DNA of 64,000 nucleotides, taken from the NCBI GenBank assembly GCA_020635235.1, contig JACKAF010000001.1:178380-242379 (forward strand), in the 5' to 3' direction. The number at the start of each line of letters is the position of its first letter. Position 1 is the stretch's first letter. A program made the translations under genes and the position numbers. This document shows positions 5,659 to 36,030 of the stretch, in pieces. This DNA is from Pseudobdellovibrionaceae bacterium. Lineage in GTDB: Bacteria; Bdellovibrionota; FAC87; UBA2466; JACKAF01. A model generated the notes under the pieces. The model saw only the letters and a program-made list of their open reading frames with translations, ran no database searches and was not told the origin of the DNA.

Positions 5659-7449
5659 ATGAGTTTGATCGCAGTGCAGAAGTTAAAAAAGTCGTTTGGC
5701 GCACGTACTCTTTTTGAAGATATTGATTTCGCCATCGAACCCGCGGAGCGCGTCGGCCTCATCGGTCCAAATGGTGCCGGTAAATCTACGCTACTCGCAA
5801 TTCTCGCCGATCGTCAGAGCCCAGACAGCGGGGAAGTGGTCCGGCAAAAGGGCGCAAAAATCGCCCTTCTGGATCAGGTACCTGTTTTGGACCTAGAAAA
5901 AACGGTATTGGACACGATCCTAGAAAATTGTGAGGGTTCCATCTCGACGGCCCTAGAAGTCTTTAGCAAAACAGGGCTTGATGCTGTAGGGGTCACCCCC
6001 GAAACACCCGTCGGGCAGCTTTCCGGCGGCTGGCGGAAGCGTGCGGCACTCGCGAGAGCGCTGGCGGCGGAACCGGACCTCTTGTTGCTAGATGAACCTA
6101 CCAACCACTTGGATGTCGAGTCGATTCTCTGGCTAGAGGAATTCTTGGGCCGAGCCCCCTTTTCAACCATTACCATTACCCATGACAGGGCTTTTCTCCA
6201 AAACACCTCCAATCGCATCTTGGAACTGGATCGGCGTAACCCAGGCGGGATGCTCAAAGTAGCCGGCGACTACGCGACCTATCTCGAAAAAAAAGAAGCT
6301 CTGCTCGCAAACCAACGCAGCCAGGAAGAGTCACTTCGCAACCGCTTGAGACGGGAAACAGAGTGGCTGCGAAGAGGGGCCAAGGCACGTACCACAAAGC
6401 AGAAAGCCAGGATCCAACGTGCAGGAGAGCTCAAAGAAGATGTCGGCGAGCTGGCCGCCAGAAACCAATCCCAGTCGGTACGTCTCACCTTCGACGGCAG
6501 CCAACGCCGATCCAAAAGACTCATCGAAGCGGTTGGTGTCAGTAAAAGCATCGAAGATCGAACGCTCTTTGAAGACTTCAGCGTTTTTTTGGGTCCGGGT
6601 AGCCGGCTGGGCCTTATAGGGCAGAACGGTTGCGGCAAAACCACACTGATCCGTACTTTGCTGGGCGAAACGACTCCGGATGCAGGGTCTATCCTGCAGG
6701 CAGACGAGCTACAGATAGCGTATTTTGAACAGCACAGAGAATCACTCGACCCAACGATTTCTGTTCAGAAAGCGGTCTGCCCGAGCGGCGATCACGTACT
6801 CTTTCAGGACCGCTCTGTTCATGTACGCAGCTATCTCGACAGATTTCTTTTCTCTGCGGAACAGGCGGATCAACCCGTATCGAAACTTTCTGGCGGGGAG
6901 CAATCCCGCTTACTAATTGCACGCCTCATGCTTAAAAAGGCGGATGTTTTAGTTCTGGACGAACCCACTAACGACTTAGACATCAGCACATTGGACGTAC
7001 TTGAAGATTGCCTTATTGAGTTTCCTGGAGCCGTCATCCTAGTGAGTCACGATCGATATTTTTTGGATCGGGTTTCCAATATCTTATATGGATTTCACAA
7101 CGGCCAACTGACGAACTTCGCCGATCTACACCAATGGGAACAGTGGCGAGAAAACTTGTCCCAGAGTGCAAAATCTGTAAAATCAGCAGACAGGCGGGAA
7201 AAAAAGAAGCGAAAACTCGGCTACAAAGAAGTTCGAGAACTAGAAGGAATGGAGGCCGCCATTCAAAAAGCTGAAAAAACCTTGGAATCGTTGACGGCAC
7301 AAGCACACAATCCGGAAAACGTTGCGAACGCAGCTAAATTGAGCTCTCTCTATGCTGAGATTGCGGCGGCCCAGGAAGTCGTCGACAAACTTTTTGTACG
7401 TTGGCAGGAACTCGAAACGCTAAAGACAGATTTGGAGAACGAGTCATGA
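5659..7449 (+). CDS. ABC-F family ATPase (Uup-like, two ABC domains plus C-terminal coiled coil)
   Basis: Two Walker A sites (GPNGAGKST, GQNGCGKTT). Two ABC signatures (LSGGWRKRAALARAL, LSGGEQSRLLIARL). No transmembrane domain. C-terminal coiled-coil tail. Start taken at MSLIAVQKLKKSFG. Confidence 0.85.
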   Translation: MSLIAVQKLKKSFGARTLFEDIDFAIEPAERVGLIGPNGAGKSTLLAILADRQSPDSGEVVRQKGAKIALLDQVPVLDLEKTVLDTILENCEGSISTALEVFSKTGLDAVGVTPETPVGQLSGGWRKRAALARALAAEPDLLLLDEPTNHLDVESILWLEEFLGRAPFSTITITHDRAFLQNTSNRILELDRRNPGGMLKVAGDYATYLEKKEALLANQRSQEESLRNRLRRETEWLRRGAKARTTKQKARIQRAGELKEDVGELAARNQSQSVRLTFDGSQRRSKRLIEAVGVSKSIEDRTLFEDFSVFLGPGSRLGLIGQNGCGKTTLIRTLLGETTPDAGSILQADELQIAYFEQHRESLDPTISVQKAVCPSGDHVLFQDRSVHVRSYLDRFLFSAEQADQPVSKLSGGEQSRLLIARLMLKKADVLVLDEPTNDLDISTLDVLEDCLIEFPGAVILVSHDRYFLDRVSNILYGFHNGQLTNFADLHQWEQWRENLSQSAKSVKSADRREKKKRKLGYKEVRELEGMEAAIQKAEKTLESLTAQAHNPENVANAAKLSSLYAEIAAAQEVVDKLFVRWQELETLKTDLENES

Positions 7450-8363
7450 AGGACGCGCTACACACACTCTGGGGGGAAATTAATTGGGCGGGCGCCATCA
7501 AGTCCGGCATTCGCATTTTCGTGTGGGTCGTTGCGATGTGGGTGGTATGGGCACTTCTTAGATCGCTCATCTTTCGTTTTGAAAAACGCGTGGTCAGTCG
7601 GACCCGCAAACAGGGTGAGCCGGCGAGTGAAGCCCAAAAACGCGCCGAGACACTTGCGAGACTAATGAAACAAGGGGTCTCCATCTCTGTTGCGCTCATT
7701 TTTGTTTTGGGAATTCTGCGGGAAATAGGGATCGACATCGGGCCTGTTCTGGCGAGCGCCGGTGTGGCTGGTTTGGCCATCGGTTTTGGCGCACAAAATT
7801 TGGTTCGCGATGTGATCTCCGGTTTCTTCATGTTACTTGAGAATCAGGTTCGGGTGGGCGATGTGGCCGTAGTGAATGGGACCAGTGGACTCGTTGAAGC
7901 CGTCAATTTCAGAACTATTGTTCTGCGGGATCTCACCGGTACAGTCCACGTTTTCCCCAATGGAACCATTAACACGCTTTCCAACATGACACTCAACTGG
8001 TCTGGGTATGTGATGGACATTGGTGTCGCGTACAAAGAGGATTTGGATAGCGTTATCGACACTATCGAGGAAGTGGGTAAAAGCCTTCAGGAAAACTCTC
8101 CCGTTGGACGCTACATATTGGAACCCATCGAAGTCTTTGGCGTGGATGATTTTGGGGATTCCGCGATTATCGTAAAAGCCCGCCTGAAAACGATGCCGGG
8201 GCAGCAGTGGCTCGTTGGCCGCGCGTACCGCAAGCAGCTCAAGTACGCCTTTGATAAGAAGGGGATTGAGATTCCCTTCCCTCACCGAAGCCTCTATTTC
8301 GGAGAAGCCAGCAAGGAAGTTGCTGTAAAACTTATCGAATCTGGAGCTAAAGCCGACAAATAG
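7446..8363 (+). CDS. mechanosensitive ion channel, MscS family
   Basis: TM helices followed by an MscS beta-domain pattern (GDVAVVNGTSGLVEAVNFRTIVLRDLTGTVHVFPNG). ATGA overlap with the ABC-F stop. Confidence 0.8.
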   Translation: MKDALHTLWGEINWAGAIKSGIRIFVWVVAMWVVWALLRSLIFRFEKRVVSRTRKQGEPASEAQKRAETLARLMKQGVSISVALIFVLGILREIGIDIGPVLASAGVAGLAIGFGAQNLVRDVISGFFMLLENQVRVGDVAVVNGTSGLVEAVNFRTIVLRDLTGTVHVFPNGTINTLSNMTLNWSGYVMDIGVAYKEDLDSVIDTIEEVGKSLQENSPVGRYILEPIEVFGVDDFGDSAIIVKARLKTMPGQQWLVGRAYRKQLKYAFDKKGIEIPFPHRSLYFGEASKEVAVKLIESGAKADK

Positions 8364-8418
8364 GCTAGCTTGACTCAGCGCATTATCTCCCCCTATGCTG
8401 TTGCACCGGAGGGACACT

Positions 8419-9198
8419 ATGCGTAGAAGCTGGCTCGTGGTTGCGGGGCTTTGGTGGACTGGCGCAGTTCTGGGAATGACCGTTCCCACGGGGACCTGGC
8501 AACCTGTGGACCGAGCTGTTTTTGAAGCACGCTATGGGGATGCGTACCCAAAGACAGAACCGACTGGTGTCACACTGATTCGCCCCACCGATAAACTTTA
8601 TGTTTACACTCTGGGAACGGCGAGCACCTCCCACTGCACCCTACTTCCACACGCTGTACAGCTAAAAGATAGCGGGAGCTTCTCGACATTTACCGCGAAG
8701 GGAAATCTAGTGGCGCTTATAAAAGCCATGAAGTTCTCTGAGATAGGTTTCACGTTCCGGGACTTTGGTGCGGCAGACGGCTATGCCACCCGCTGCCTAA
8801 TCCATGCCTTTGCAGGCATCGAACCGGAACCCTCAGCAGATGAAAAAGAACGCGCCCAATATAAGCGCATAGGATCGGTTCCATACGAAGGTGGTTTTGT
8901 ACGCAGTCTGGACTATGATCTGAGTGAACGCCTGCCATTGAAGAAGTTGCTTCTTAAGACCCCGAATTCCTGCATCCAAAAAATGGAAATCCTGGAAGTC
9001 GGTACCATTGTGAACGGCCAATTCCACCGCGCGGTACCCAGTCAAAATGGTCAGGGCGAATACTTTTATCAGGTAGACAACTCGTCCAAGGATTCATTGA
9101 CGAAGATTCGCTTGCGAGTTAATGGGAAGTTCCCATCAGACGACGATAAAATGGAATGCCCGATTGAGGTCAGCGCTTTGCTTTGGAGTCAATCATGA
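8419..9198 (+). CDS. hypothetical secreted protein
   Basis: Signal peptide MRRSWLVVAGLWWTGAVLG. No recognisable domain. Confidence 0.45.
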   Translation: MRRSWLVVAGLWWTGAVLGMTVPTGTWQPVDRAVFEARYGDAYPKTEPTGVTLIRPTDKLYVYTLGTASTSHCTLLPHAVQLKDSGSFSTFTAKGNLVALIKAMKFSEIGFTFRDFGAADGYATRCLIHAFAGIEPEPSADEKERAQYKRIGSVPYEGGFVRSLDYDLSERLPLKKLLLKTPNSCIQKMEILEVGTIVNGQFHRAVPSQNGQGEYFYQVDNSSKDSLTKIRLRVNGKFPSDDDKMECPIEVSALLWSQS

Positions 9199-9971
9199 AG
9201 CTCATATGGATATTCTTGATTTTGAGTCTTCCGGCCCATGCGAGTTATTTCGGCCCCGAGATTTTTGGTAAGGGCTTTGACAGCGCGGGTGGCGATTACA
9301 TTACAGGGTTCAGAAAGCTAGACAAGAAAATGCCCGCAAACCATATCCAGGTGATGGTCAAAAGGAATGGTCTTGGAATCTGTAAGTACCAACTAAAAGG
9401 AATCGCGGTAAAACACACGCCAGGTTCCGATGTTTTTTCAACCTATACTCCGTACCGCGAAAACTCGGAGCGGGGGGATTTTCGCTCTGACACCAAGTAC
9501 TTTTCCTACTTCCGGCTCAACGATCCGAACATCGAGGAAATTCAGTTCTTTCTGGAAAATGTAGGAGAAAACGACAATGTTTGGGAATGTGCCGTAGTCG
9601 TAAATGCGGAACCCTACAAAGAATCCGTACCAGCACCCCATCTGGACGTACGCCGCTTCCACCATCTAGACGCGATTCTATACGCAGGCGGCAACAAACT
9701 GCGTTCCCTTCCTCTAGGACCAGAAGGAAAGAATCTGCAGTACGTGCGCGTCCAAGTCCCCGCATTCTGCAACCAGAGCGTGAGAATCACTCAGGTGAAC
9801 GTTATTGATAGCGAAAAGGAAAGTTGCGAGTTGCGCGCTGTAAGCAAGCCGCTTGGAATCTACCAGGTACACCTACCGCCCAAGCGAAGCGCGAACTACA
9901 TCGAACTGAAGCTCGAGGGCGAGGAATCCACCGAAGTCTGCGCGGTACCCGTCAGCCTTTTTCAGGAGTAG
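9195..9971 (+). CDS. hypothetical secreted protein
   Basis: Signal peptide MKLIWIFLILSLPAHA. ATGA overlap with the upstream gene indicates co-transcription. Confidence 0.45.
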   Translation: MKLIWIFLILSLPAHASYFGPEIFGKGFDSAGGDYITGFRKLDKKMPANHIQVMVKRNGLGICKYQLKGIAVKHTPGSDVFSTYTPYRENSERGDFRSDTKYFSYFRLNDPNIEEIQFFLENVGENDNVWECAVVVNAEPYKESVPAPHLDVRRFHHLDAILYAGGNKLRSLPLGPEGKNLQYVRVQVPAFCNQSVRITQVNVIDSEKESCELRAVSKPLGIYQVHLPPKRSANYIELKLEGEESTEVCAVPVSLFQE

Positions 9972-11289
9972 GAAAAACCGGCGGCGTAGGCGGCGGGTTT
10001 TGCGGCGGCGCTGGCTTGGGTTCTGGCGGCGGAACCACCTGCAAATACGGACTCACCAAACGACTGAACAAGATGGGCGTTAGGACCGTAGAAACCACAC
10101 TGAGCAGCACCAAGGTTGAAAAAAGGTCGGTGCCGATAACGCCACGAGTGAGGGCGATGTCGGCAACCACCAAATCCATCGTCCCCCGACAGTTTAGAAT
10201 AATTCCAATGCCAAGTGCGACCTTGGGATCCACCTTGGCCCATCTCCCCGCAAGTTTGCTGGATAGGATCTTGCTACCGATAGACACTGAAATGAGGGCT
10301 ACCGCGAAGCAGATTCCCCAGAACGACTGCAAGGGGGACCAGCTAAAATTCAAGCCGATGAACGCAAAAAAGATGGGAGCAAGAAACCCTGTCGTAATGG
10401 AATTCAGGGTCTCTTCCAGGTTCTTATAGAGCTTCGGACCGATGGCGTCCTTGCTAATCAGTAGGCCGCCAAAAAAGACCCCGATAACGAAATGGGAGCT
10501 CAGTTCCTCACTAAGAGAGCCGACTATCAACACAAAGAGGATCGTAAGGCCAAAAAGGGATTCTTTCCCGAACAGTCGGATAATGCGGGTCAGCTGTTTT
10601 TCTAAAAGTCCACGCTGTGTGCCCGCCCACTGGAATACATAGTAAATGACAAACATCACTACAGCGAAAATCATCAGTTTTCCGCCGGTGTGCTGCACAG
10701 ATGTTAGTAGCTCCGAAAAGCTGAACTGCGCCGCGGGCAGGCCCAGTACCACACCAAGAAAGAAGAGTGCCGCAATGTCATTAAACATCGCCGTCGCTAT
10801 CGAAAACTGCGAGATTGGGTGGTTCAGAAGCTTAAAGTTAGAAAAAATACGGATAATCACCGGCAATGCCGTGATTGCAATGACGAGCGCCAGAATAACT
10901 GTTTGCGTCGCGGTCTTGCTAAATAGAATACCGAGCAATATCCCGCTACTGAGTGGGATCAAAAAGGATACGGCCCCGAGTATGGAGCCTCGCCCGATGA
11001 AGGCTTTCATCACTTCCCGAAAATCCATTTCCAGACCGGCGGAAAGTAGAATGAGAAACACACTCAGCTCGGAGATCCCTTTCAGCTCAAGGGTCGGCTG
11101 AATAAAGCCCAAAGCGGCGGGACCGAGGATAATTCCCGCAAGGATTTCCCCAACCACCGGCGACTGCTTTAGCCGGTTCATCAACTCACCCAAAAGGCGA
11201 GAGAAAACCAGCAAAAGCAGTATGCTGGTGATTAATCCCACCGTTTCATGCGAATTCTCAATGAGGCCGGGTTCCGCTAAGTGTTCCAT
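9952..11289 (-). CDS. cation:proton antiporter (CPA/Kef-type Na+/H+ exchanger family) with a Pro-rich C-terminal tail
   Basis: N-terminus GEILAGIILGPAALGF is typical of Na_H_exchanger proteins. About 12 TMS. Tail PPPEPKPAPPQNPPPTPPVFPTPEKG. Confidence 0.7.
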   Translation of the reverse strand: MEHLAEPGLIENSHETVGLITSILLLLVFSRLLGELMNRLKQSPVVGEILAGIILGPAALGFIQPTLELKGISELSVFLILLSAGLEMDFREVMKAFIGRGSILGAVSFLIPLSSGILLGILFSKTATQTVILALVIAITALPVIIRIFSNFKLLNHPISQFSIATAMFNDIAALFFLGVVLGLPAAQFSFSELLTSVQHTGGKLMIFAVVMFVIYYVFQWAGTQRGLLEKQLTRIIRLFGKESLFGLTILFVLIVGSLSEELSSHFVIGVFFGGLLISKDAIGPKLYKNLEETLNSITTGFLAPIFFAFIGLNFSWSPLQSFWGICFAVALISVSIGSKILSSKLAGRWAKVDPKVALGIGIILNCRGTMDLVVADIALTRGVIGTDLFSTLVLLSVVSTVLTPILFSRLVSPYLQVVPPPEPKPAPPQNPPPTPPVFPTPEKG

Positions 11290-29422: not shown

Positions 29423-32400
29423 TTACTTGCTGATACGTACGTACGCGTTGTTACAGGAGTTTGCGTCAAATAACGAACTCCCCTTCGTCATGTCGGTCAT
29501 GATGCGGGGCATGAGTTCTACAACGATATCAGAATGGATCTGACCTTCCTGGATGACCCCCTTTACAACGTCTTCCAGATCCCCCGGCTGCAGGTACTTG
29601 AAAAAGTCACCGAGCGCGATGACCCCTTTCTGCACGCGGATCAGGTAATCTGATGCCCCACCTTTTTCTGTTTTTTCCTGAATGAGTTTAAACAGGTAGT
29701 CCCCAAAGGCGTGATCCCCGGTACCGAGTTCGGATTTGAAGCTTTTTACCCCCTCATAGAGGACATCCGCGAGTACTTTTCTATCTTCTGTCGTTGGCAG
29801 CTGATCGTCGGTTGCCATTGCACCGAAATCAAACAAGTAGATCTTGTTTCCGTCTATTTTGAGCTGCGCACCGTGGCGATCGTGATCGAATTTCTCGCCT
29901 CTCAGTATCCGTGAAATCTCAAGCGCCACATAAGCGCGCGCGATGTCGCGCTTGCGTGCTTTTTGCTTGGCGGTTCTTTCGGGGAGATCGTTAAAATGCA
30001 CGCCTTTAGCCTGCTCCATCACGCGGTAACCCTCTCCGCTCTCCAGTGTGCGGGCCACGTGTATCTCGAAGGGTTTGCCATCGCCCACTTTAATCGTGGC
30101 GCCGTGATAAAGGCGCTCAGCGTCCTCGGCTTGCTTTTTCCCGATTTGCCAATCGGTTTCAATATCAGCCATCCGTTCGGCTTGCTCGATCATGGAAACA
30201 AGGACCTTAAAGGCGGAGTTCTTTTCGGCCTGCTTTTGCGCCATCTTCTTCATGACTTCAAAACCAGTCTTGGCGCGCTTCTTCGCATGCGGACGAAGGA
30301 GAGAAATCACGCGGCTTTCTAGTACGACGCCGCCATTGGGCCGCACGGTCTCTAGTTCTACTTCGTAGGTGACATAGTAGGACGCAGCGCCAAGTATCCG
30401 TTTGACGCGTTTAATGCGCTTTTTGAGAGAAGCGGGAATGACATCTCCATGCAGCTTAAAGAGATCCCAACGCGTTAGCACGTCCGCTTCGCTCTTGAGG
30501 CGGCCCATCCCATCACGGATTTCATGTGGGGTGTGCGGACTACTGTGCAGGACTTGTCCCAACTTTGTTTCGGCGGGTCCCATGCGTTCTAGAATAAGCG
30601 CCAGACGTTCTCCAATGGTGGTCTTAAAGCGAGACTGCTCCGTATTTTGCGCCGCCGCCATAAGCGCTGCGATCACAAGGCTGCGTTGGTACTTGGGGAT
30701 CTCCTCGATGTAGAGTCGCACCAGATCGTGCGCCTCTTTTGAGTACTTTTCACCCGTTGGGAAAACCTTGTTTAGGATTCTCTCGGCAGCCTTTTCAAAT
30801 TCACCGTCACTTCGCCTGTCTCCGGGAAGAATAAGTTCATCAATGATCCCGACCCGAAGCTCCATGTCGGACGCCCAGAAGTTTTGGTGAATCTCGCGGG
30901 CCAGACGCTGGTAACCCTCATCGGTTGAAATGGCTTGACCATCGGTGAGGAGCTGTTGCTCAAGACTTAGGGCGTGGCCAAAATCCGAAAGAGAACGCGC
31001 GGTCATCGGGCGCGTGAGAAAATCGACTAGTTCGTCGCGAAATTGATGGTTGGCTCGCACCAAGCGCAGGGAGAGGTTAAGCCCCATCATTTTTAGGTCG
31101 GTCTCGACACCTTGCCCCCTTCGCGCTTCTCCTAGCTTCAAACTGAGATCTTCTTGCGATTCCACTTCGTTGGCGAGGTGGTTGAATAGTTCGTGCCGGT
31201 CTTGGGCATAGAGGTGTGTCCCGGCGCGATCAGCTTCTGCGAGGATAGTTTCGGTGTAGATAGAATCGCCTGCATCCTTACCGAATCGCTCACGCGCGGA
31301 TTGCGCCCAGAGTTTAAGCATGCGGGTTCGCAGTTTTGGGTCTTGTACTCGTGGGCCTCTAAAGATGCGCTCAATGGCGCCTTGGCGAAGCGCTGGCGAG
31401 CTGTATTCGGAAAGCCGATCCAGAATGTCTTTGATAAGTTTGTAGCGCAGCACCCCGTCCTCCGGGAAAAGCCTCGCCTTGTCAAAGAGGGTAAACTCGT
31501 TGAGTAGTGGCCGTGCGCTTTTTGGCCAGTCTTTGCGGTTTTTTACGTAGTTCGAAAACCTTTTTTCTAAGCTTGTGGTTTTCTCTCGCCATTCGCTATG
31601 CAGATATGGAAGCACGCGTTTTGGATCCAGGTTTTCTTTGGGGTGGTTGACCTGAAAGACTTCTGCTTCCATCGCCGCCAGCCCGGCGAGGAAGTTTCCG
31701 GGACGGGATCCCAGACTTTCCAGTAGCTTGTAGAGCTCCTCGGCCGTTTGTGGTTGCTCGTAACCCAACTGCCTCCTAACGGTCGTGAGATAGAGATTGG
31801 CTGTATCTTGCCGGACATCGGGCATACCGCTAGGGGCGAGCGGCGGCACGAGGGCTGAGGTAAATCCAAGCACATGGACTTTGTCCTGACGCGAGGGAAA
31901 TAGGCCGTGAGGGTCTTCGAGCGCAAAGCTTACTAGCGGGTGGGCAAGCGGCAGACCGTCAAAACCGTGCTCGCCATAAGAGGCCCCCGCTCTGCCCGCG
32001 ATATCGGGGAAGGCGCCTTTCATATAAAACTCGCGGACGATGGGTTTCCATTTGTCCGGATCTTCTCGGATGAGTTCGGAGAGCTTTTTTATGAGTTGCC
32101 CGGCGGGCGCACCCGAGCGTGCCGGGATATCAGACAGGATCGGCATATTGACCCGCATAAAAAGATCAAAATCTTTATCTATGGATTCGAGTCCGATGAG
32201 GCCGTCTGATTTTCCCATTGAGGAAGCGCTCGCAGTAGCTAAAATGTCGTGGGCTTCCGTATCGCCGTGAATCGCTCGCTGAAAGAGTTCCGGTACATAC
32301 TCTCCGAAGAGTTCGCGGCGTAACTCTTCAGCTTTTCCCGAGCCCGGCTTTCGCAGCCCGACCGCTTCACCGTCGGCGCCAATAACCAAACGATCCATGG

Positions 32401-33919
32401 TGCGATCGTCCCGACGAGGGCCTTCGTTCACCGATTTGCAGCGTCCCAGCATACAGAGCGCTTTGTCGTTAAGATCCATCAGCTGATAGACGCGCGGCTC
32501 TTTCACTCCGAGATGATAGAGCGCCAAGCTTAGGTGTTTGGAATCGTCCCCCACGCCCTGCGACCAAACGATGGCCCGTTCCCATTCCACGGTTTCGCCC
32601 TTTCGGGGAAAACGAAAGGTTGGGATGTAAAGATCCTGTAGAAAGGCGGCATCAATCTTTCCGTCTTTGATGGCCTTATTCAGGCCGATGGCGGCTTCCA
32701 CTGCGGCTTTTCTGTAAGAGTCTGCGGTGCGGGTATCCCCTTCGTCCGAGGCTTCGGTGGCTTTTCTCACTGCCTCCACAAAATCATAAGCATAGACGAA
32801 GATTGGCTCTGCATCTCCCAGAGCGGTGTCGGATTTGTGGTAGCGCTGCGCGAGAGCGGTGTAGAGTCTTTGGCGTGGGCCCGTGAGTCCAAGTTTTTCA
32901 TCTGGGTCACGTGTTGGCAGATGCAAGATGAGATTTGCGGCCTTGCTGAGTTCCACCCAACGCGGATCATCGTCCATTTCGATGCTTTCCAGGGAGGGGA
33001 TCGTTCCAATCGCTGCGCTAAGGTCCTCGGTGCGCGCATCGTGACCGGAAAGAATGTGGGGCATCTGCGCCTGGACAAATTTCAGTTTCTCTACAGCGTC
33101 CAGAGTGGAGAACTTGGCCTTTTCCATTTCCTTATCTAAAAAAGATACGTGCTTGCTACTGCCGGCCGCGGCAATCTTGGGATCCACAGGAGTGCTGGCA
33201 ATCTTTTCCCCGGCGTCCGTTTCCTCAAGCTTTCCTTTTTTGAAACGTAAATGCCCTAACCCTTTCTCCACCATCGAGCGGCGCGTGGGGAGGTCCCACG
33301 CAAATATTGAGCGATCTCCAAATCCGAACTTCGATCGGGGTTCATTTTCAAGAGCGTCCTGTACGCTTAGCGCGGCCGTAGCGTCGAAATGGCGTTCATG
33401 GAGGACTTCCAAAGCGCGCGTGACCCCGAGAGCGTCATCTGCCATACCGGTTCGGGCTTGTGGCTCGGAATCGATCTGGTTCGAAATGACTTCGGTCGCG
33501 AGCAAGTAGGCGAGCTCATCTTGTGTCTTTACCGTCCGCACGGTTTGCGTGGTGAAGCCAATGAAGTTGTGTCCGTCGGTAACGAAGCTTTTGTGCCCGA
33601 GACGATCGCTATCCATCAGGAAAAAATGAACGGGGTGCTTTTTTAGGTCGTGATTGGGAAAGAGCCGCTTAAAGAGCTCTTGCATTTCGATGTCGAAGTC
33701 GCGCGCCACGGGGGATTGGAGATCCACCACACGGTGATTTTCCTGAAGGCGTTGAGACATCTCGCCACGCGCAAGCGCTTTGTCTTCATCGTCCGTAGGA
33801 TCTGCGTGCAGGGCAAAACTGAAGGCAAAAAACAGAAAAAATAGAATTTTAGCTAGGGACTTGATCCCGGCCTCCTCGTGCGTAATCCGTCGCTTGTTGT
33901 TATGCAAGGAGACGGCCAA
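29423..33919 (-). CDS. giant signal-anchored protein: degenerate M48-like peptidase segment plus C-terminal ABC1/UbiB-type atypical kinase domain
   Basis: 1498 aa. Hydrophobic N-terminal segment ILFFLFFAFSFALHA. N-terminal region FFLMDSDRLGHKSFVTDGHNFIGFTTQ...DELAYLLATEVIS resembles the M48 core, but HExxH is replaced by TEVIS. C-terminal LERMGPAETKLGQVLHSSPHTPHEIRDGM ... FDHDRHGAQLKIDG ... LFDFGAM match ABC1 kinase motifs. Confidence 0.65.
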   Translation of the reverse strand: MAVSLHNNKRRITHEEAGIKSLAKILFFLFFAFSFALHADPTDDEDKALARGEMSQRLQENHRVVDLQSPVARDFDIEMQELFKRLFPNHDLKKHPVHFFLMDSDRLGHKSFVTDGHNFIGFTTQTVRTVKTQDELAYLLATEVISNQIDSEPQARTGMADDALGVTRALEVLHERHFDATAALSVQDALENEPRSKFGFGDRSIFAWDLPTRRSMVEKGLGHLRFKKGKLEETDAGEKIASTPVDPKIAAAGSSKHVSFLDKEMEKAKFSTLDAVEKLKFVQAQMPHILSGHDARTEDLSAAIGTIPSLESIEMDDDPRWVELSKAANLILHLPTRDPDEKLGLTGPRQRLYTALAQRYHKSDTALGDAEPIFVYAYDFVEAVRKATEASDEGDTRTADSYRKAAVEAAIGLNKAIKDGKIDAAFLQDLYIPTFRFPRKGETVEWERAIVWSQGVGDDSKHLSLALYHLGVKEPRVYQLMDLNDKALCMLGRCKSVNEGPRRDDRTMDRLVIGADGEAVGLRKPGSGKAEELRRELFGEYVPELFQRAIHGDTEAHDILATASASSMGKSDGLIGLESIDKDFDLFMRVNMPILSDIPARSGAPAGQLIKKLSELIREDPDKWKPIVREFYMKGAFPDIAGRAGASYGEHGFDGLPLAHPLVSFALEDPHGLFPSRQDKVHVLGFTSALVPPLAPSGMPDVRQDTANLYLTTVRRQLGYEQPQTAEELYKLLESLGSRPGNFLAGLAAMEAEVFQVNHPKENLDPKRVLPYLHSEWREKTTSLEKRFSNYVKNRKDWPKSARPLLNEFTLFDKARLFPEDGVLRYKLIKDILDRLSEYSSPALRQGAIERIFRGPRVQDPKLRTRMLKLWAQSARERFGKDAGDSIYTETILAEADRAGTHLYAQDRHELFNHLANEVESQEDLSLKLGEARRGQGVETDLKMMGLNLSLRLVRANHQFRDELVDFLTRPMTARSLSDFGHALSLEQQLLTDGQAISTDEGYQRLAREIHQNFWASDMELRVGIIDELILPGDRRSDGEFEKAAERILNKVFPTGEKYSKEAHDLVRLYIEEIPKYQRSLVIAALMAAAQNTEQSRFKTTIGERLALILERMGPAETKLGQVLHSSPHTPHEIRDGMGRLKSEADVLTRWDLFKLHGDVIPASLKKRIKRVKRILGAASYYVTYEVELETVRPNGGVVLESRVISLLRPHAKKRAKTGFEVMKKMAQKQAEKNSAFKVLVSMIEQAERMADIETDWQIGKKQAEDAERLYHGATIKVGDGKPFEIHVARTLESGEGYRVMEQAKGVHFNDLPERTAKQKARKRDIARAYVALEISRILRGEKFDHDRHGAQLKIDGNKIYLFDFGAMATDDQLPTTEDRKVLADVLYEGVKSFKSELGTGDHAFGDYLFKLIQEKTEKGGASDYLIRVQKGVIALGDFFKYLQPGDLEDVVKGVIQEGQIHSDIVVELMPRIMTDMTKGSSLFDANSCNNAYVRISK

Positions 33920-34105
33920 TTCTTGTCCGTCATTTCAACTGGTTAGCAGCCTGTAAACTAGCTGAGTTCGTAGTAGATCTAAGCACCAGTCTGGGTCTTG
34001 ATATAAGGTGAAAGCGAGGAGCTGCATTCTAGAAGTGTGCTCCCGAGGAGAGCGAAAGATTCGACCCCGAAGGGAACGAATCACAAAACCGTCAGCCAGT
34101 GAAAC

Positions 34106-34231
34106 TGGCGGAGAGAGAGAGATTCGACCCCGAAGGGAACGAATCACAAAACCGTCAGCCAGTGAAACTGGCGGAGAGAGAGAGATTCGACCCCGAAGGG
34201 AACGAATCACAAAACCGTCAGCCAGTGAAAC
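34106..34231. repeat. two perfect tandem 63-bp repeats, each starting with a copy of the 22-nt 3' end (with CCA) of the adjacent tRNA-Ser; a degenerate third copy lies at 34043-34105
   Basis: Unit is TGGCGGAGAGAGAGAGATTCGA plus CCCCGAAGGGAACGAATCACAAAACCGTCAGCCAGTGAAAC. Copies start at 34106 and 34169. The tRNA itself starts at 34232. The degenerate copy matches 17 of 22 nt. Confidence 0.85.
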
Positions 34232-34319
34232 TGGCGGAGAGAGAGAGATTCGAACTCTCGATAGGTTTCCCTATACACGCGTTCCAGGCGTGCGCCTTCA
34301 ACCACTCGGCCATCTCTCC
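34232..34319 (-). tRNA. tRNA-Ser (anticodon GGA), type II with long variable arm
   Basis: Reverse complement GGAGAGATGGCCGAGTGGTTGAAGGCGCACGCCTGGAACGCGTGTATAGGGAAACCTATCGAGAGTTCGAATCTCTCTCTCTCCGCCA folds as a cloverleaf. 7-bp acceptor stem, anticodon loop CTGGAAC, T-loop TTCGAAT, encoded CCA. Confidence 0.85.
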
Positions 34320-34590
34320 TTAGGCGATTTGGAAACTGACAAGAGTAACGAGATAACACGGTTTCACACACGCGTCTACGCCAGAAAAGTAGCCTAATCT
34401 TAGCTGTTTAGAGCGTTCTGGGCGCAGTTGCCAGGAATGAGGGACCTGCCCCCCAACACGGCTCCCGGACAGAATTCCAGCCCCAACAGGATCCCGTCCA
34501 GCAGGCATACGATCTAGGCGTATTCCGACAGAATTCCTGGCCCCCTCGGGCTCACACCGTGGCCTTAGCTTTGCATTTTCGCTCCTTAGT

Positions 34591-36030
34591 ATGGCTGGGG
34601 GTCACAAACTACTATTCTTTTTTCTTTTGCTTGCGCGCGCCGTAATGGCCGACACTCTTTCACCACCCGCCACCCCCCTTGATTGCCGTGCGGCGCTCCA
34701 AGAAATCGGCCTTACTCCCGATGAAGCCTCCGCGCTCATGAACGAGGCGTCCCCGTCCTCTCTTCGCCACATCATCGAGAACCACTACCGAACTCCGTCG
34801 AGCCTGGAGGACTCTTTGCGTAAGCACGTCGCGGGTGACCGAGCCCTTTCCGATTCCGCGGTAGCCGCCTTGGAGAAAGCCGGCTATCGGGTAATCCGCA
34901 AACTCGGGCAAGGCGCTTTTGGCACCGCACACCTTATTGAAAAAAACGGAAAGCGCTTTGTCGTAAAAGAGGGGCACTCACCAGAGTCCCTGATCCGAGA
35001 GGCTGAGGCCATCTCCGCATTGCCCCAAATTCCACCGCAGTTTTTCTACTTCCCGTCAGTGTGGTACCCAACCGCCACTGAATTTCCGTACCAGCGCGGC
35101 GGCAATAAAGATAACTTGCTCATCGCGGCCCTTTTCGAAAAGTGCCCCGGCTGTCACGAGCCAGCTCCCGCGCTTAGCCAACGTATTAAAGAGCAGTTCT
35201 TGGATCCTCAAGAAAATCCGGTACGGTACCAGCACTTCGTACGGAGCCTACTGGATAGCGTCGCTGTTCTCCATACTTCAGGCCGTATCATCCACCGCGA
35301 TATTAAACCCGAAAACATTCTGGTGGACGACTCGGGAAACGTGGGGGTCATCGACTACGGAATGGCCATCGACGGCGCCGCCTTCGGACCAACCACCCTC
35401 TCGGGCACGCTGAAATACGTCTCGCCAAGTGCGCTAAGGGGAAACCCTCCCTCTCCCCTTGATGATATCCACGCGCTACGGATCACTTTGCGCAGCGTTC
35501 GCCAATCGACCGATCCTAATGCTGCGCCACTCATCAATGTTTCGACTGATTATGGCGTCTTGCCGCTTCACAGCCACGCGGCTGAACTCCCAGGTAAACC
35601 GGACAGAGTTGCAATGCTTGAATGGAGCCGAGTGTTTGACTCCGTTACTGAGTGGCAAGCAGCGTTGGACAAGCGGGCGATTCCGGATCGTGAGTTTGAC
35701 CCTTGGTACGGCCAACGGTTGACGACTCAGGATGATTCAACAATCGCACTCGAAATGCTCAGTTCCCTCTATTCTATCGAACGCTTCCGATCCAACGGTG
35801 GGTACCAGATTGAAAATGAGCGGTTAAAAGAAATAATCGTTGAAGTTATTCGCCTCGATGGCGCTTTAGGGAACCAGCCCGCGCTCCTTCTGGAACGGGG
35901 CTTCCTGACTAGAGACGCACACTTTGAGGAATTCTACGATCAAGTAGAAACACTCTACCAACACGGAGAAATACCCCACTACCTACTACGCATGGCGCGG
36001 GAATCGCGCACCCGCCGCGCAGGCCCCTAG
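34591..36030 (+). CDS. eukaryotic-like Ser/Thr protein kinase with N-terminal signal peptide
   Basis: Signal-like MAGGHKLLFFFLLLARAVMA. Gly-rich loop LGQGAFGTAHL with VVKEG lysine. Catalytic loop HRDIKPENILVD. DYG(MA) variant of DFG. Confidence 0.75.
   Translation: MAGGHKLLFFFLLLARAVMADTLSPPATPLDCRAALQEIGLTPDEASALMNEASPSSLRHIIENHYRTPSSLEDSLRKHVAGDRALSDSAVAALEKAGYRVIRKLGQGAFGTAHLIEKNGKRFVVKEGHSPESLIREAEAISALPQIPPQFFYFPSVWYPTATEFPYQRGGNKDNLLIAALFEKCPGCHEPAPALSQRIKEQFLDPQENPVRYQHFVRSLLDSVAVLHTSGRIIHRDIKPENILVDDSGNVGVIDYGMAIDGAAFGPTTLSGTLKYVSPSALRGNPPSPLDDIHALRITLRSVRQSTDPNAAPLINVSTDYGVLPLHSHAAELPGKPDRVAMLEWSRVFDSVTEWQAALDKRAIPDREFDPWYGQRLTTQDDSTIALEMLSSLYSIERFRSNGGYQIENERLKEIIVEVIRLDGALGNQPALLLERGFLTRDAHFEEFYDQVETLYQHGEIPHYLLRMARESRTRRAGP

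Follow-up and report, generated by a model that had tools for sequence, protein, structure and literature searches.

A 63-bp tandem array on the 3' end of a tRNA-Ser(GGA) gene in a Bdellovibrio-like bacterium

The 3' end of a tRNA-Ser(GGA) gene is reiterated directly behind the gene in a head-to-tail array with a period of 63 bp. The array is likely to be a young, species-specific minisatellite (VNTR) that was built on the 3' end of the tRNA. This reading draws on what can be seen directly in the DNA: the anatomy of the array, the identity of its spacers, the flanks common to three haplotypes of the species, a difference in unit number between them as assembled, and the absence of the array from relatives. 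Structures of this kind are already known, and the present array is a new instance in a phylum far from Escherichia coli. Throughout the text, the window is the whole 64-kb stretch of DNA that was analysed, and all coordinates refer to it unless another contig is named.

Anatomy of the array

The window has a single tRNA call (ARAGORN), an 88-nt tRNA-Ser(GGA) gene with an encoded CCA on the minus strand (34319..34232), which scores 59.9 bits against the Rfam tRNA model RF00005. In the RNA sense, the gene ends in ...GAGAGT-TCGAATCTCTCTCTCTCCGCCA. The last 22 nt (34232..34253, minus strand) are the parent block of the array and contain the T-loop from position 55, the 3' strand of the T-stem, the 3' strand of the acceptor stem, G73 and CCA; the same 22-mer can also be written as TCGAATCTCTCTCTCTCC(GCCA). 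On the same strand the block is followed by a 41-nt trailer, GTTTCACTGGCTGACGGTTTTGTGATTCGTTCCCTTCGGGG (34191..34231), which is the first copy of the spacer, and then by a first perfect copy of the 22-nt tRNA end (34169..34190). A second spacer (34128..34168), a second perfect copy (34106..34127) and a third spacer (34065..34105) come next, all of them exact matches to their counterparts. The array closes with a degenerate copy, TCGAATCTTTCGCTCTCC (34047..34064, minus strand), which is 18 nt long, agrees with the parent block at 16 of 18 positions and lacks G73-CCA. Past this element the similarity ends (TCGG versus GCCA, one match in four) and unique sequence begins.

Each 63-bp unit is composed of the 41-nt spacer and the last 22 nt of the tRNA, from the T-loop to CCA. 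TRF gives 3.3 copies of a 63-bp period with 98% matches over 34047-34253. The 22-mer has exactly three exact occurrences in the window and none in 100 shuffles; the 41-nt spacer likewise occurs exactly three times, with 0 mismatches, and is absent from the shuffles. Because the three spacers are identical, the copies arose by the duplication of one unit and not by independent recombination events. An earlier note on this DNA, made without database searches, had described a tRNA 3' end reiterated at a 63-bp period in two perfect and one degenerate extra copy, and both TRF and the exact matches agree with it. It had also placed the array immediately behind the tRNA 3' end, which is right, with the correction that the tRNA and its downstream side both lie on the minus strand. 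The 41-nt spacer, which the note had put after every copy, is found after the tRNA's own end and after the two perfect copies, but not after the degenerate one.

Several origins of the repeated DNA were considered and rejected. As a decayed second copy of the tRNA, the spacer gives local alignments no better than those of shuffled sequences (1663 of 2000 for the tRNA body), and the same applies to an inverted tRNA copy (914 of 2000 shuffles for the reverse complement, 153 of 2000 for the reverse complement of the 22-mer). The spacer resembles neither the tRNA body, nor its reverse complement, nor the flanks. A CRISPR array is not in question either, as the spacers are identical and no cas families occur among the listed Pfam matches.

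The array is located between tRNA-Ser(GGA) and the next gene on the same strand, which encodes a 1498-aa ABC1-like protein (29423-33919, minus strand), and it is probably co-transcribed with the tRNA. On the upstream side, the neighbours are a Ser/Thr kinase, a CHAD protein, MscS and an NrsF/ECF sigma pair. All of these are ordinary chromosomal genes. The flanking proteins assign the DNA to an uncultured Bdellovibrionales/Bdellovibrionaceae MAG.

Unit number and distribution of the array

Three haplotypes of one species, 99.4-99.8% identical, have the flanks, the spacer and the degenerate copy in common. As assembled, they differ solely in the count of 63-bp units, and no inserted DNA is found in any of them. 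The assembly GCA_020435265.1 is about 99.7% identical to the window over 8.3 kb and, as assembled, has one unit, which makes it exactly 126 bp (two units) shorter than the window. The third haplotype is represented by a Logan contig from SRR7638773 (L012), with 99.7% identity to the window and 99.4% to GCA_020435265.1. This contig stops at ttgtgattcgttcccttcggggtcgaatct|t. Its first 30 bases are common to a spacer followed by a perfect copy, where the next base is C, and to a spacer followed by the degenerate copy, where the next base is T. Logan contigs derive from a de Bruijn graph with k=31, in which a unitig must break if, and only if, both continuations are present in the reads. It follows from the break at the shared 30-mer that two or more units are present in SRR7638773; a C/T polymorphism at this position is the less parsimonious alternative. 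The unit numbers, which come from assemblies and not from reads, are three in the window, one in GCA_020435265.1 (possibly an assembler collapse) and, by inference, at least two in SRR7638773.

The locus with one unit may be a genuine allele, or it may stem from a short-read assembler, which yields just such a locus on collapsing a perfect tandem repeat. The opposite error, a three-unit array assembled from a true one-unit locus, is very unlikely. It is true that tandem repeats are known to cause errors in assemblies (PMC6868369) and that a single unit is seen in the one other assembly that covers the full locus. However, assemblers usually collapse perfect repeats and do not expand them, and the de Bruijn contig of an independent sample breaks exactly where a second unit demands it. 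Moreover, the proteins of the window are found on a 795,214-bp MAG contig, and a contig of this size would point to long reads, which could cross the 207 bp of the array. The multi-copy state is independently supported by the Logan contig and is hence not an artefact of the assembly of the window. For annotation and assembly, the disagreement of MAG assemblies by exactly two units is a reason for caution; if the minisatellite reading is right, the array could also be used to tell strains of this uncultured Bdellovibrio-like species apart.

A stepwise origin can be proposed for such a minisatellite. The basal state would be the one assembled in GCA_020435265.1, in which the 41-nt trailer separates the tRNA 3' end from an imperfect direct copy of 18 nt. 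The array would probably have been seeded by this older direct repeat, now the degenerate terminal copy. The tRNA end and the 18-nt copy, both short, would have acted as direct repeats for replication slippage or unequal recombination, by which the 63-bp unit was duplicated; as the internal copies are fully tRNA-like, the first switch would have to lie within the first eight shared bases, TCGAATCT. Two perfect units could easily misalign by homology, leading to further expansion or contraction of the unit number. In a locus without the spacer and the 18-nt copy, the distal flank that would directly abut the tRNA reads TCGGGAGCACAC... Slippage is in keeping with internal copies that are perfect, a terminal copy that is degenerate, flanks that are conserved and an apparent difference in unit number. 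The mechanism is our inference, as are the neutrality of the array and the direction in which the unit number changed (expansion versus contraction); nothing indicates a selected function.

In comparison with known minisatellites (VNTRs, as used for MLVA loci), the array has the same intergenic setting, a unit of tens of base pairs, near-perfect copies, a degenerate terminal copy and conserved flanks, and its unit number, taken from assemblies and not from reads, may differ between closely related strains. Unusually for a VNTR, its first unit extends over the functional 3' end of a tRNA gene. If the minisatellite reading is true, the locus would be a clean example of a tRNA 3' end acting as the first unit of a minisatellite, with modest practical value.

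A pattern extending from the anticodon stem to the 3' end of the tRNA retrieved 32 Bdellovibrionales loci from one-genome-per-species collections. The 28-nt 3' part of the tRNA is identical in all 32. None of these tRNA-Ser(GGA) loci contains the spacer or a nearby reiteration of the 3' end, as judged by a script that recovered the E. coli tyrT/tyrV repeats as a positive control, and the 41-nt spacer has only chance matches of 10-16 nt in the relatives. The downstream flanks differ among all 32 loci, none of which has the flanking genes of the window. A gapped pattern, made of the 22-mer, 20-50 nt and again the start of the 22-mer, gave 0 matches in 185,579 GTDB species genomes and 0 in JGI metagenome contigs; the 41-nt spacer alone gave 0 matches in JGI metagenomes and 0 in viral contigs. 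As far as can be seen, the array is confined to one species, which favours a recent origin and disfavours a conserved function.

The flanking genes were followed into other genomes as well. The 1498-aa gene has a homologue in a closer relative, GCA_041391485.1 (L048), with 73% nucleotide identity and homology starting about 117 bp beyond the array. Neither a tRNA nor an array is found next to this homologue, and both of its flanks differ. The Ser/Thr kinase has only two homologues in a large protein database; the locus of the one at 60% (L011) is not syntenic and has no tRNA.

Among the species representatives (L014-L045), the DNA directly 3' of tRNA-Ser(GGA) is different in nearly every case, including genomes labelled Bdellovibrio bacteriovorus. 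Some of these flanks carry genes of a defence or mobile type, such as GmrSD, a C-5 methylase, an IS200 Y1 transposase and HTH_3/Peptidase_M78. The tRNA-Ser(GGA) gene may mark a variable region in Bdellovibrionales, judging from 8-kb loci that are too short for distal repeats. In one representative (L044), the sequence GAAGCAATCTCTCTCC, located 153 nt downstream of its tRNA-Ser(GGA), matches the tRNA 3' block at 13 of 16 positions. It is CT-rich and probably a chance match; no further near-hit turned up for the 60 tRNAs checked.

Comparison with integration sites in tRNA genes

The first direct repeat might itself go back to the integration of a mobile element. A tyrosine-recombinase element would once have entered the block between the T-loop and the 3' end, giving attL in the tRNA and attR in the displaced copy; its interior would then have been deleted down to 41 nt and the junction amplified. 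We regard such a scar as plausible, though less likely than not. It is compatible with a minisatellite, as it concerns the origin of the first direct repeat alone. Integration of this type into tRNA genes is a general mechanism (PMC9897764).

The repeated block, which runs from the T-loop to the 3' end as att identity blocks commonly do, is in line with this origin. Sublocation classes of att blocks within tRNA genes were reportedly distinguished by Williams in 2002. A further point is the presence of the identical 22-mer on an unrelated viral contig (IMGVR_UViG_3300038312_000179, L008), within a 28-nt partial tRNA copy that begins 5 nt after a Phage_integrase gene (E 1e-23). There, the tyrosine integrase occupies positions 8318-9399, followed after the 5 nt by GAGAGT and the 22-mer, and the locus has no full tRNA. 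The 28-nt copy is a candidate attP or att junction of a phage whose target is a tRNA ending in this way. Three other viral contigs (L003, L004 and L007) contain longer fragments, from the anticodon arm to the 3' end, of a different tRNA-Ser(GGA), again with no full tRNA. Finally, the distal copy in the window is the degenerate one, as expected once a copy lies outside the functional tRNA.

Against this, the 64 kb show no mobile gene, no shift in composition and no second fragment of the tRNA. No integrase came up when 43 ORFs of the window were scanned with Pfam (in the second scan, among the top 25 families listed), and no Phage_integrase is present in the precomputed annotations covering 19.4-40.9 kb. 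The GC content is flat across the region. A search for further tRNA fragments over the 64 kb, allowing up to 3 mismatches in 22 or up to 5 in 18, found no copy of the 22-mer or the 18-mer beyond chance, and a distal attR inside the window was rejected on this ground. The similarity of the distal copy ends at the acceptor strand (16 of 18 positions, then one of four), whereas a displaced 3' end should have G73-CCA, and the spacer matches nothing viral or otherwise. Among the 32 relatives, no Phage_integrase is found in the top 25 Pfam families listed for 52 ORFs just downstream of the tRNA.

The array and a tRNA-integrated attL/attR pair have in common a full tRNA gene, a partial 3' copy in direct orientation and a block that starts at the T-loop. 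They differ in what lies between the copies, which is 41 nt here and not kilobases with an integrase. The array is also tandem, with identical spacers, its distal copy has neither G73-CCA nor the original trailer, and the window holds no mobile genes. The repeats bracket no integrase-bearing element and, if the array is a minisatellite, a direct repeat of a tRNA end alone is no evidence of one.

The earlier note had read the array as an att-type footprint. The T-loop-to-CCA block is indeed of the kind used by tyrosine integrases, but nothing mobile is found between or near the copies. Of the two processes it had proposed, amplification of a junction fits the tandem 63-bp duplication, while repeated integration and excision is contradicted by the identical 41-nt spacers. 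Its statement that the window has no integrase holds for the Pfam scans of ORFs (at least among the top 25 families listed) and for the annotations of 19-41 kb. The integration hotspot that it had suggested finds no counterpart in mobile DNA between or near the copies, in GC content or in another tRNA-Ser fragment within the 64 kb. Strain-level relatives have identical flanks and, as assembled, differ in unit number alone, which is largely the picture that the note itself had associated with a minisatellite. An active hotspot, in which mobile elements would reuse the array as tandem attB cores, is hardly credible: it could draw on the multiple perfect copies of a sequence that appears to serve as a phage att core elsewhere, but the identical spacers speak for duplication and not for independent events, the three haplotypes share the same flanks with no inserted DNA, no integrase is present in the window (Pfam, top 25 families listed), and the upstream tRNA context (the T-stem 5' strand), present in att sites such as that of L008, is found at the tRNA-proximal copy only.

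Comparison with the tyrT/tyrV repeats of E. coli

The array could also be a functional RNA module, with units that are co-transcribed with the tRNA and act in processing or termination, or that yield CCA-ended small RNAs like the E. coli RtT RNA; its (UC)n tracts could alternatively be Rho-loading sites. This is improbable, although the layout matches that of tyrT/tyrV. In E. coli K-12 (NC_000913.3), a 178-bp unit is repeated 3.1 times after tyrV, each unit closing with 19 nt from the 3' end of tRNA-Tyr (T-loop to CCA). In both systems (RtT, RF00391; rttR/tpr), the tRNA is followed by about three head-to-tail units ending in the T-loop-to-CCA block of that tRNA (19 nt long in E. coli and 22 nt in the window), and the last element is a copy of the block. 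The annotated rttR RNA has its 3' end at the CCA of the first repeated copy of the tRNA end (PMC3318445). The folding of the window array also leaves some room for an RNA module: the 63-nt unit folds somewhat better than its shuffles (MFE, z -2.8 to -3.5) and two units do so at z -5.4. The MFE structure includes a CCC-UUCG-GGG hairpin in the first spacer. The block that is repeated, a (UC)n tract, is rich in C and poor in G. No intrinsic terminator was detected between the tRNA and the ABC1-like gene downstream, and neither a terminator of this type nor a sigma-70 promoter was detected within 33600-34700.

The structural and comparative evidence points away from such a role. The module is conserved in 0 of 32 relatives and was not found in GTDB species genomes or JGI metagenomes, and the unit number apparently varies. 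Rfam recognises no family other than tRNA, and no RtT at the gathering score, in the whole window, where the remaining matches are weak, sub-threshold and due to chance. Between 33500 and 34800, RF00391 gives no match even at E<=10; as a positive control, the same model gave four matches of 133-138 bits in E. coli. The MFE structure of E. coli rttR contains the helix GGGGAAGGAU/AUCCUUCCCC. In RtT, a closing helix of 10-12 bp leaves ACCACCA free, whereas the window unit has no such helix. It contains no internal complement of the acceptor strand (no GGAGAGA-like sequence), and its MFE fold pairs the CCA, with GCCA opposite UGGC. The apparent inverted relation between the spacer and the 22-mer is not significant (153 of 2000 shuffles). 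Further differences concern the unit (178 bp versus 63 bp), the lack of sequence or covariance-model similarity between the two arrays, and the confinement of the window array to one species. The array resembles a tRNA-end repeat of the tyrT type in layout only and does not belong to the RtT family.

A role in processing or in Rho-dependent termination is conceivable, unsupported by conservation. By analogy, the array might be an independently evolved counterpart of tyrT/RtT, taking part in tRNA 3'-processing or providing (UC)n Rho-loading sites, and thereby releasing CCA-ended unit RNAs or ending the tRNA transcript before the ABC1-like gene; we give this little credence. If the units were processed or terminated transcription, they would bear on the origin of RtT-like tRNA-linked RNAs. 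If the array were a true counterpart, 'tRNA-end minisatellites' would be a recurrent way of building tRNA-linked RNA modules.

The unit length of 63 is divisible by 3, which lets a frame without stop codons extend across the array (33935-34210, minus strand) and encode a 21-aa repeat, VIRSLRGRISLSPPVSLADGF. This frame was rejected as a gene, with nothing in its support beyond the absence of stops. It is a curious parallel to the tpr ORF within the E. coli tyrT repeats.

In the intergenic region between the tRNA and the kinase gene, a 17-nt direct repeat, GACAGAATTCC(A/T)G(C/G)CCC, is present at 34468-34484 and 34527-34543, 59 bp apart. Each copy contains a GAATTC palindrome, and the motif may bind a regulator or be associated with a promoter. 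An overlapping match to an HDV-like ribozyme, below threshold at 18.7 bits (E 6.8), is probably due to chance.

The 1498-aa protein encoded beyond the array has a signal-peptide-like N-terminus, and Pfam recognises only its C-terminal ABC1/UbiB-like kinase domain. The gene is the only block shared with L048, where the gene neighbourhood is entirely different. The homologue there (6923-11254) is annotated as four consecutive ORFs (190+218+609+417 aa), which suggests frameshift errors or pseudogenisation. The leader of the gene, ACAAGAATTGGCCG...CTTGCATAA...AGGAGGCC (about 33930-33870 on the minus strand of the window; 6751-6810 in L048), is conserved between the two species, and the sequence further upstream differs. 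It likely represents the gene's own promoter and ribosome-binding region, in which case the 1498-aa gene could be transcribed without read-through from the tRNA.
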